DNA from: Escherichia phage EcoDS1 | Sequence record: NC_011042.1 | Reading direction: 5' to 3' (one strand) | Length of the DNA stretch: 39,252 nt | Notes under the pieces: model-generated | What the model saw: the letters and a program-made list of their open reading frames with translations, nothing else | Told to the model about the DNA's origin: nothing | Databases searched by the model: none | Made by a program: the position numbers and the translations under genes | Shown: piece by piece, positions 22,119 to 39,252 of the stretch | Layout of the letters: every line of letters starts with the position of its first letter | How positions within the stretch are numbered: position 1 is the first letter of the stretch

Positions 22119-22123
22119 TTGAA

Positions 22124-22161
22124 ACCCCTTGGGTGCCTTCGGGTGCTTGAGGGGTTTTTTG
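22124..22161 (+). terminator. Intrinsic terminator after the capsid gene (Tphi-like)
   Basis: CCCCTTGGGTGCC-TTCG-GGTGCTTGAGGGG hairpin with a UUCG loop followed by TTTTTT; resembles T7 Tphi. Confidence 0.8.
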
Positions 22162-36644: not shown

Positions 36645-38404
36645 GTAAAGACTTAGTGGCGCGTCATGCGCTAATGACTGCACGTATGAAGGCAGACTTC
36701 GTGTTCTTCCTGTTCGTCCTGTGGAAAGCTCTGTCACTCCCGGTCCCGACTCGCTGTCAGATTGACATGGCGAAGAAACTATCGGCTGGGGACAACAGGC
36801 GCTTCATCCTACAGGCGTTCCGTGGTATAGGGAAGTCCTTCATTACGTGTGCCTTCGTTGTCTGGAAGTTATGGAACAACCCAGACTTGAAGTTCATGAT
36901 TGTGTCGGCCTCAAAGGAACGAGCCGATGCTAACTCCATCTTCATCAAGAGAATCATCGACCTCATGCCTCAGCTTCAGGAACTCAAACCTAAGCAGGGG
37001 CAGCGAGATGCGGTTATCAGCTTCGACGTTGGACCGGCCAAGCCAGACCACTCACCTTCGGTTAAGTCCGTTGGTATCACTGGTCAGTTGACTGGTAGTC
37101 GTGCTGACATCCTGATTGCCGATGACGTGGAGGTTCCTAACAACTCAGCGACTCAGGCTGCACGAGACCGTCTGTCAGAGCTTGTGAAAGAGTTCGACGC
37201 TATCCTGAAGCCGGGAGGTACAATCATCTATCTGGGTACTCCTCAGAACGAGATGACCTTGTATCGTGAGCTGGAAGGCCGTGGATACACCACTACTATC
37301 TGGCCTGCTCGTTATCCACGTGATAAGAAGGACTGGCAGTCTTACGGCGACCGTCTGGCACCGATGCTTCAGGCAGAGCTGGAAGAGGACCCTGAGTCCT
37401 TCTACTGGCGTCCGACTGATGAAGTACGCTTCGATGATACGGACCTGAAGGAACGCGAGTTGTCATATGGTAAAGCTGGCTTCGCTCTACAGTTCATGCT
37501 TAACCCGAACCTGAGTGATGCAGAGAAGTACCCTCTGAAGCTCCGTGACCTTATCGTAGCAGACTTGGACCCATCGTCCAGCCCAATGGTCTACCAATGG
37601 TTGCCTAACCCTCAGAACAAGCGTGAGGACGTTCCTAACGTTGGACTCATGGGTGACTCATACCACACATATCAGACTGTAGGTTCTGCCTTCAGTTCGT
37701 ACACCCAGAAGATTCTGGTCATTGACCCCAGTGGTCGTGGTAAGGATGAAACTGGCTATGCGGTACTATACCAGCTCAACGGCTACATCTTCGCTATGGA
37801 AGTTGGTGGTATGCGTGGTGGTTATGAAGACTCTACTCTTGAAGCTCTGGCTAAGATTGGTCGTAAGTGGAAGGTCAACGAATACGTCATTGAGGGTAAC
37901 TTCGGTGATGGTATGTACCTTGAGCTATTCAAGCCTGTAGCGGCCCGTATTCATCCTGCTGCTGTAACTGAAGTGAAGAGTAAGGGTCAGAAGGAACTCC
38001 GCATCTGTGACGTTCTGGAGCCTATCATGGGGTCTCACCGACTTATCGTTAACGCTGCTGCTATCGTCCAAGATTACCAGTCGGCCTCTGATAAGGATGG
38101 TGTTCGTAACCCTATCTACTCTCTCTTCTACCAGATGACACGTATCTCTCGTGAACGTGGAGCCTTGGCACACGATGACCGACTTGATGCTCTGGCTATC
38201 GGTGTACAGTTCTTCGTTGAGTCTATGGCTAAGGATGCCAACAAAGGAGAACGTGAAGTCACTGAGGAGTGGCTGGAGGAACAGATGGAGAACCCACGGA
38301 AAGGCTTCGAGTCCATCCACACTGAGTTCTGGGACAATGGGGTACGGGTAACTCACGATACGGACGACGAGCTAGGGCTAGGGTCCTACGTTACGTTCCA
38401 CTAG
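36641..38404 (+). CDS. Terminase large subunit (gp19)
   Basis: 587 aa; [158 protein letters not shown] match T7 gp19; apparent TTG start preceded by AAGGAGGT. Confidence 0.97.
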
Positions 38405-38499
38405 CTGAATGAATAACTATGGGTGAAAGCTGCATGAATACGCAGTTAGTAACCTATAGTTACTACCAGTCCTAACCTACTGTTTTACAAGGAGTTTGG

Positions 38500-38522
38500 A
38501 CTTAACTATCACTATAGGGAAG
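38500..38522 (+). promoter_or_regulatory. Phage-RNAP promoter near the right end (phiOR-like)
   Basis: GACTTAACTATCACTATAGGGAAG; +1 G at 38517. Confidence 0.8.
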
Positions 38523-38701
38523 ACCCCCGGTTACTTATAGTATTACTGTAGTGAATATACATATGCAGACTTTATGCAAGACCTTAGGAGGCAGACTCCG
38601 AGTTCTTACCTAAGGCTTGCACCGATGGAAGGAGGTGATATTAATCATAATACCTCCAATACAGATAGTCACCGACCATAGATACAGGAGGTATGTAGCA
38701 T

Positions 38702-38860
38702 ATGGCAAAGACCAAAGCTGTACTTAAAGCTCTGGCGACCAATCGAGCTACATACAGGTTTCTTGCTGCTGTTCTACTTGCTGCTGGCGTTACTGCTGGA
38801 AGTCAGTGGGTCGGGTGGGTCGAGACTCTCGTATGCTCTCTGGTCTCTCAGTGTAATTAA
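38702..38860 (+). CDS. Small hydrophobic protein (52 aa), gene 19.5 position
   Basis: CAGGAGG RBS then ATG; FLAAVLLAAGVTAG hydrophobic core; below the ORF-track cutoff. Confidence 0.45.
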   Translation: MAKTKAVLKALATNRATYRFLAAVLLAAGVTAGSQWVGWVETLVCSLVSQCN

Positions 38861-38893
38861 CGCAATCATGGTAACGATTCATGAGCGGAAGAC

Positions 38894-38936
38894 CTAAGGT
38901 CAGTACGTGAATAAAGACTCACTGTACTGACCTTAG
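38894..38936. other. 13-bp perfect inverted repeat (stem-loop) near the right end
   Basis: CTAAGGTCAGTAC (38894..38906) and GTACTGACCTTAG (38924..38936) are exact reverse complements with a 17-nt spacer. Confidence 0.6.
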
Positions 38937-39074
38937 CTACTGTAGTCAAGGACCTAAAGTAACACTATAGCAGTCCATGGTCTATCCCAAGGTCTCTGAC
39001 ATACGGTATTACCTACAGTAGCAGGGACTCCTAAGGAGGGACGATGAGTTTTGGACCAAAAGTTTGAGACCACA

Positions 39075-39252
39075 TCTCACAGTTCAAGAACCTCAAGTCT
39101 CCCCATAGGCCCTCTTTCAGTCCAGACCAAAGGCCCTACCCCAGTCTATCATAAGGTTGGACCGATGGTCAAGACGTTAGGTCGACGATAGGTTGCGGCT
39201 ATGGCTTAGGGAAGGACGATAGGTAGGGACTATGGGTCTTCTTTGAGTCTCT
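39075..39252. repeat. Right direct terminal repeat (DTR), 178 bp
   Basis: Identical to 1..178. Confidence 0.9.

Follow-up and report, generated by a model that had tools for sequence, protein, structure and literature searches.

Concatemers of phage T7 that end in a hairpin were reportedly seen in 1990 by Chung, Nardone and Hinkle, who are said to have proposed them as processing intermediates and to have mapped the hairpin end to a point some 190 bp left of the terminal repeat. This intermediate has apparently been followed up only rarely. T7 carries an imperfect palindrome, AGGGATTCAGCGGTATGAT/ATCACACCACTTCATCCCT, at 39568-39608, and its centre (39588) lies exactly 190 bp before the start of the T7 terminal repeat (DTR) at 39778. 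We take this palindrome to be the site of the T7 hairpin end, and we draw the connection mainly because the two 190-bp positions match, one of them reported and the other taken from the T7 sequence. The step by which the single repeat at each concatemer junction becomes two in T7-like phages is still described as not fully understood (PMC3350473, PMC4281155). Another known signal of the junction is CJ, a class II pause/termination signal, which together with Tphi makes up the only two natural terminators of T7 RNA polymerase (bioRxiv 10.64898/2026.02.12.705533). Terminase is thought to be recruited at the CJ pause (PMC3276506).

The whole stretch of DNA analysed here, called the window (39,252 bp), is a complete T7-like genome belonging to Kayfunavirus. 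Its right end matches 220 records, the best of them being Escherichia phage PH1061 (96%). The terminase large subunit gene ends at 38404 and is followed by a consensus phage RNA polymerase promoter at 38504-38520 (+), an analog of phiOR located in the same place as the annotated phiOR of T7 and T3. Matches to the phage promoter number 11 in the genome, all on the + strand, with 0.09 expected by chance. The last gene is a 52-aa ORF resembling gene 19.5 (38702-38860, +; compare the 19.5 annotation in T7, T3 and YeO3-12), and 214 bp of non-coding DNA separate it from the right DTR copy (39075-39252), which is 178 bp long and identical to 1-178. Transcripts from the 38504-38520 promoter run through gene 19.5, through the hairpin described below and through the DTR. 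Directly after the left DTR copy there is a CJ-type ATCTGT (179-184, +), which in a concatemer lies 178 bp downstream of the DTR start; the CJ of T7, ATCTGTT (T7 161-167), occupies the same position, directly after the 160-bp T7 repeat. A previous sequence-only reading had located the inverted repeat studied here in the region where T7 has signals for packaging and concatemer processing, and the phiOR-type promoter and the CJ-type motif bear this out.

The inverted repeat is composed of a left arm, CTAAGGTCAGTAC (38894-38906), and a right arm, GTACTGACCTTAG (38924-38936), which are complementary at 13/13 positions and separated by 17 nt, just as the sequence-only reading had proposed. It starts 33 nt past the stop of the gene 19.5-like ORF (38860), close to the 35 bp given before. 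The former estimate of about 140 bp to the DTR also stands, with 138 nt in between, although the repeat begins at 39075 instead of 39076 and measures 178 bp. Folding of the apical part (38907-38923) adds a GTGA/TCAC stem of 4 bp with an 8-nt loop and one bulged T, giving 17 bp in total. The predicted RNA fold has a dG of -29.6 (z -5.2) and the DNA fold a dG of -15.2 (z -5.1), and none of 200 shuffled sequences folded as well. As DNA both strands fold, at -15.1 and -16.4 kcal/mol (z about -7.5). This is the longest perfect inverted repeat with a spacer of up to 40 nt in the 39,252 bp, and only 3 of 100 dinucleotide shuffles of the genome gave any inverted repeat of at least 13 bp. It is also the most stable 60-nt fold of the genome (-28.8, for a genome mean of -12.4 and sd of 4.0), more stable than the Tphi-like terminator at 22120-22158.

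Comparison with relatives, suggested as a check in the sequence-only reading, gave a positive answer: the element is conserved, it covaries and it has positional orthologs in T7 and T3. The Kayfunavirus sample contained 25 IMG/VR loci, obtained via the terminase C-terminus, and eight named phages from other hosts (Monomax, LET1, EPr2, GW1, Dev2, phi1_146013, MopsHU1 and SEA1f), plus K1F. The basal stem CTAAGGTCAGT(A)/(T)ACTGACCTTAG is identical in every Kayfunavirus examined (about 35 genomes), their hosts being Escherichia, Salmonella, Cronobacter, Klebsiella, Pectobacterium, Providencia and Morganella. The first 11-12 nt of the left arm are invariant, and these relatives retain a basal stem of 11-12 bp together with an apical stem of 3-5 bp. 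The thirteenth pair (C38906-G38924) is formed in this genome alone and is a C.C mismatch in 11 of the 12 distinct sequences, so the perfect 13 bp represent a local variant of a conserved 11-12 bp stem. Three apical forms are found in the relatives (GTGGATAAAGACTCAC, TCATAGCTGACGCTACTC and CGTGGGATAAACCCTCCACTC), each with a small stem of its own, and depending on the form the conserved 11-bp arms are 19, 21 or 23 nt apart. At each of these loci, no other 46-nt window within the final 1 kb ahead of the DTR matches the hairpin in stability.

Among relatives, the DNA flanking the hairpin on either side diverges and contains indels. Immediately upstream, relatives have 0-2 extra small ORFs, and since these are inserted up to the hairpin, the hairpin appears as a boundary for gene gain and loss. 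Downstream, the spacer shows 70-80% identity in 198 of the 220 records and is 25-35 bp longer there than in the window. The extra ORFs between gene 19.5 and the hairpin (e.g. MDEESYGSFSEEDYQTEWEYAH) were observed in loci L006, L009, L011, L016, L019 and L020, at about 2250-2790, where the stop codon of the extra ORF adjoins AAGACCTAAGG; the corresponding part of the window is 38861-38893. The spacer at 38950-39040 is mosaic: it has 93-94% identity to Morganella phage MopsHU1 and some Salmonella phages, and just 70-80% to most Kayfunavirus, including PH1061, the best match overall. Coding sequence running through the hairpin (ORFs 38763-38897 on the + strand and 38866-38949 on the - strand) was considered and rejected: there are 2- and 4-nt indels, the upstream ORFs come and go, and arm spacings of 19, 21 and 23 nt break the reading frame. 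Scans with short patterns returned chance matches only, both for ACCAAAAGTTYGAGA in viral contigs and for AAGGTCNGTN{15,27}ACNGACCTT in metagenomes, AGTCAA with the DTR context being found in 0 of 120 loci of the latter.

Covariation was analysed in 12 distinct sequences from Kayfunavirus and Citrobacter phage CR8. In this set pairing holds in 92% of the cells, and four pairs have changed both partners, two of them in CR8. The observed pairing and covariation values were reached by 0 of 500 shuffles, and in a control with the partners slid by 1-3 columns pairing fell to 22-43%. CR8 (L023), with a terminase identity of 74%, has the arms TTAAGGTCTGTA/TACAGACCTTAA. In its basal stem C-G is replaced by T-A and A-T by T-A, while in its apical stem G-C is replaced by A-T, with GTAGG/CCTAC in place of GTGG(G)/CCAC. 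One apical pair takes the states G-C, G.U and A-U, with G.U in 5 of the 12 sequences. RNAalifold, run with no structure supplied, predicted the same helix of 11+4 bp with an internal loop; its prediction contained no conserved outer extension of the kind present in the window's own fold. The inverted repeat exists, is exceptional within its genome, is non-coding and is conserved by structure.

When the right ends of T7, T3, phiYeO3-12, K1F, Yersinia phage Berlin and 80 loci from a terminase profile were scanned with a sliding fold, inverted repeats of unrelated sequence emerged at a similar place in other genera. Those of T3 and phiYeO3-12 are homologous to the T7 version, the L048-L057 group has a further variant, and Berlin-type phages have a different pair. 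When the window, CR8, T7, T3, Berlin and L053 were aligned, the inverted repeats fell directly 5' of a common AGTCAA block, Berlin excepted; Berlin-type loci have their own inverted repeat 5' of AGTCAA. The hairpin stands immediately 5' of AGTCAA in 32/32 distinct sequences. In the window this motif is the core of a conserved block, CTACTGTAGTCAAGGA (38937-38952), directly 3' of the hairpin. According to the alignment, a second conserved block, GACGATGAGTTTTGGACCAAAAGTTTGAGACCACA (39040-39074), abuts the DTR, and the pre-DTR block AAAAgTtTGAG...A|TCTCAyAGT is common to the window, T7 and T3. The distance from the hairpin centre to the DTR varies between 145 and 212 bp across genera and is 160 bp in the window. 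The T7/T3/L048 family covaries too, with four pairs changing on both sides (e.g. TGAT/ATCA in T7 versus TAGT/ACTA in T3), which indicates a positional ortholog kept by structure and not by sequence. The inverted repeat is therefore the Kayfunavirus ortholog of the T7 39568-39608 palindrome, and other genera have orthologs in the same position. In T7 and in the T7-like loci L043 and L044 one more hairpin, ATGGTCTATC...GATAGGCCAT, is centred about 112 bp ahead of the DTR (T7 nt 39638-39685; L001 739-786); the window does not have it, because only its left arm is conserved here.

Several other features were observed around the element and elsewhere in the genome. A conserved hairpin at 38414-38462, right after the gene 19 stop and present also in K1F, is built from a basal stem of 11 bp and an apical stem of 6 bp with an internal loop between them (RNA dG -21.2, z -4.2), a shape resembling that of T7 RNase III sites. 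Another hairpin, at 38575-38621, between the phiOR-like promoter and gene 19.5, has arms with CCTTAGG/CCTAAGG, the motif of the studied inverted repeat in the opposite order, and its left arm (38580-38588) is complementary at 9/9 positions to the left arm (38893-38901) of the repeat studied here. A second perfect inverted repeat, of 10 bp (GCTACTGTAG/CTACAGTAGC, 38936-38945/39013-39022, arms 67 nt apart), begins on the final base of the studied hairpin; each of its arms is part of a conserved Kayfunavirus block, with G.T at one position in some relatives. CTACAGT is also the unit of left-end repeats. At 185-345 the left end has arrays of short direct repeats, four copies each of AACCATAAGTCA and (A/G)CCTACAGT, in a position analogous to that of the CCTAAAG repeats of T7 (T7 170-300). 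A sigma-70-like promoter match, TTGACT-17-TACAGT (38949-38921, -; 9/12, by consensus match only), has as its -35 the reverse complement of the AGTCAA block and would start leftward transcription inside the hairpin. A second phage promoter at 38954-38970 (CTAAAGTAACACTATAG) was rejected, as it has more than 3 mismatches to the 17-mer core and is unconserved in relatives. The second-longest perfect inverted repeat of the genome, AAGGGCCTATAG/CTATAGGCCCTT (12 bp, 25350-25361/25388-25399), has a 26-nt spacer that encloses a consensus phage promoter (25371-25387), its right arm beginning at about +5 of the transcript. The Tphi-like class I terminator at 22120-22158, which served as a contrast, has a GC-rich 17-bp stem followed by TTTT.

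Having weighed the evidence for and against each reading, we favour, with moderate confidence, the interpretation that the inverted repeat works in cis as a DNA palindrome belonging to the concatemer-junction (pac) region. It shows several of the features expected of a concatemer-junction palindrome: a non-coding position, orthology with T7, and the potential to form a hairpin in ssDNA, with pairing under selection. We infer its action as DNA, the strand that folds and its role in repeat duplication. In 32/32 sequences the fold of the minus strand, which in these phages is never RNA, is no less stable than that of the plus strand, versus 33% of genome windows. Moreover, where the inverted repeats of T7, T3 and L048 have mismatches, the RNA-sense strand shows A.C and the opposite strand G.T. 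As a discriminator between DNA and RNA this strand asymmetry is suggestive only, the lineages being related and the differences in Kayfunavirus amounting to 1-2 kcal/mol; the commonest Kayfunavirus apical form runs counter to it, with G.T on the plus strand. It also speaks against a DNA element that the distance to the DTR is not fixed, that T7 has its second hairpin 112 bp before the DTR, that T7 mostly tolerates insertions at its genome ends (PMC11482910, described below), and that the region is transcribed from the phiOR-like promoter, with the hairpin 0-35 nt past the last stop, like an mRNA 3' stem-loop. Such a location would suit an RNA-level element, either a 3' stabiliser or a processing site for RNase III or another RNase, in late transcripts after gene 19.5, an element that could fix or shield the 3' terminus of the last mRNA upstream of the repeat and the CJ pause. 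Consistent with this, all 11 promoter matches are on the strand that would be transcribed through the hairpin, which follows the 19.5 stop by 33 nt and, in relatives, comes directly past the stops of the inserted small ORFs. In addition, the element folds very stably as RNA, 5 of the 12 sequences accommodate G.U at one apical pair, and two hairpins of similar shape are located after gene 19 and before 19.5. However, there is no U-run, and a class I terminator was rejected: the 3' flank, GCTACTGTAGTCAAGG, has no T-run in the window or its relatives, and a terminator scan of 38400-39252 found 0 terminator-like sites. The sequence-only reading had likewise noted that, having no U-tract, the repeat is not a typical intrinsic terminator. 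The class II ATCTGTT-type motif is absent from the hairpin, ATCTGT being separate, at 179-184, and T7 RNA polymerase has just Tphi and CJ as natural terminators. RNase III substrates usually have roughly 20 bp, about two helical turns, and although the element is transcribed, its conserved helix is shorter: 11+4 bp, interrupted by an internal loop, or 13+4 bp in the case of the window, whose outer extension is unconserved. Dunn and Studier (1983) are not known to have mapped an RNase III site after gene 19.5 in T7. A search of Rfam with the inverted repeat, even at E<=10, gave no family, and the mismatches of the T7/T3 ortholog read A.C in the RNA sense but G.T on the opposite strand. The inverted repeat is probably not an RNase III site, and we regard an RNA-level role as possible but rather unlikely. 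The sequence-only reading had offered the alternative of a DNA-level signal or an RNA processing site; the T7 orthology, the helix that is short for RNase III and the absence of an Rfam family lean towards DNA, without deciding between the two.

Two further explanations were considered. The arms could be inverted copies of the CCTAAGG-type short repeats that abound at the genome ends, bound as duplex DNA by a symmetric protein, for which no hairpin is needed, the terminase small subunit or another pac-binding factor being candidate binders. This would fit arms that are invariant within Kayfunavirus instead of covarying freely, the enrichment of CCTWWRG at the right end (6 in 850 bp, versus about 1 per kb) and the symmetric double changes in CR8, which would also suit a dimer of changed specificity. 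However, a dimer operator has fixed half-site spacing and a free spacer, and here, with arm spacings of 19, 21 and 23 nt, the half-sites would be turned by 70-140 degrees relative to each other; a hairpin loop would be unaffected by this, but a rigid dimeric operator is hard to reconcile with it. The apical region, moreover, keeps its own covarying stem, unneeded by a duplex site, and other genera keep a hairpin in this place with unrelated arms, so that we find a duplex protein site unlikely. Even less probable, in our opinion, is that the repeat has no dedicated function, being, for instance, an inverted end-repeat duplication or a recombination scar at a boundary of small-ORF exchange, carried by linkage. 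The mosaic boundary, with ORF insertions upstream and a divergent and shorter spacer downstream, agrees with this reading. So does the general tolerance of T7 genome ends to insertions: in a T7 insertion screen, for which the positions covered are not given, most genome-end intergenic loci were non-essential (PMC11482910). This tolerance suggests that the element may aid efficiency rather than be essential. Against this reading, compensatory changes occur in two independent sequence families, and the stem is invariant beside DNA of 70-80% identity. Palindromes are also targeted by SbcCD- and Lamassu-type defence (PMC11707656); being costly, useless ones should decay.

Returning to the DNA palindrome that we favour, it is tempting to propose, from the orthology with T7, how it might act. 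Transcription from phiOR would proceed through 19.5, the palindrome and the single repeat, and pause at CJ just past the repeat. Nicking with strand displacement, or the passage of a fork, could then leave the palindrome single-stranded or torsionally stressed late in replication or during packaging; we propose this state of the region on the basis of strand displacement or a fork near the junction together with the pausing of phiOR transcription at CJ. The palindrome might snap back or extrude, providing the turn-around of a hairpin-ended intermediate, and DNA synthesis from there would copy the junction's single terminal repeat along with the spacer of roughly 140 bp. Phage nucleases might finally open and trim the hairpin, leaving a full repeat on both neighbouring genomes. 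The distance between the inverted repeat and the DTR, which varies (145-212 bp), would fit a role in priming or as a turn-around. More tentatively, and with the chances rather against it, we hypothesize that throughout Studiervirinae a structure-conserved, sequence-divergent palindrome 145-212 bp to the left of the DTR serves as the obligatory fold-back point for repeat duplication, maybe on the bottom strand, with a lineage-specific stem that would be read by the cognate terminase or nuclease and thereby add to the packaging specificity among phages. If fold-back does take place, the near-perfect Kayfunavirus version would be the best handle on the regeneration of the second repeat.

A hairpin kept at the orthologous spot by compensatory evolution, in spite of unrelated sequences, supports a structural cis-acting role. 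The Kayfunavirus palindrome is much cleaner than that of T7 for mutational or long-read study of repeat duplication, and it belongs in any minimal packaging signal designed for Kayfunavirus transducing particles or synthetic genomes. Host systems that sense palindromes, such as SbcCD and Lamassu/DdmABC, are likely to target it as well (PMC11707656).

Among known systems, the intergenic RNase III sites of T7 (R0.3 ... R18.5) share with the element a transcribed stem-loop in which an internal loop or bulge separates the basal stem from the apical one. They differ from it in that its conserved helix, of 15-17 bp, is short and pairing is at least as good on the non-transcribed strand. A Tphi-type class I terminator is likewise a stable hairpin downstream of a gene, but no U-run follows the inverted repeat in any relative and the genome's own Tphi-like element (22120-22158) looks quite different. 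The rolling hairpin of parvoviruses and the concatemer junction of poxviruses also place a palindrome by the junction, as a possible turn-around or nuclease substrate, and T7-like phages encode endonuclease I, a possible junction resolver. In contrast to those viruses, the mature ends of the window are blunt direct repeats, and its palindrome, besides being much shorter, lies inside the genome at 138 nt from the repeat. The T7 palindrome at 39568-39608 has the same setting, after gene 19.5, 5' of AGTCAA, with phiOR upstream and the CJ ATCTGT just past the repeat. Like the window's inverted repeat, it forms a hairpin on both strands, and compensatory changes maintain both. Their stem sequences are unrelated (CTAAGGTCAGT... 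in the window versus AGGGATTC... in T7), and the inverted repeat of the window is by far the more perfect and stable of the two (DNA dG of -15 to -16 versus -7 to -11 kcal/mol). A hairpin-ended intermediate is reported for T7 alone. The inverted repeat of the window represents Kayfunavirus in the palindrome class already implicated in T7 concatemer processing, and its stem is new and far more perfect.
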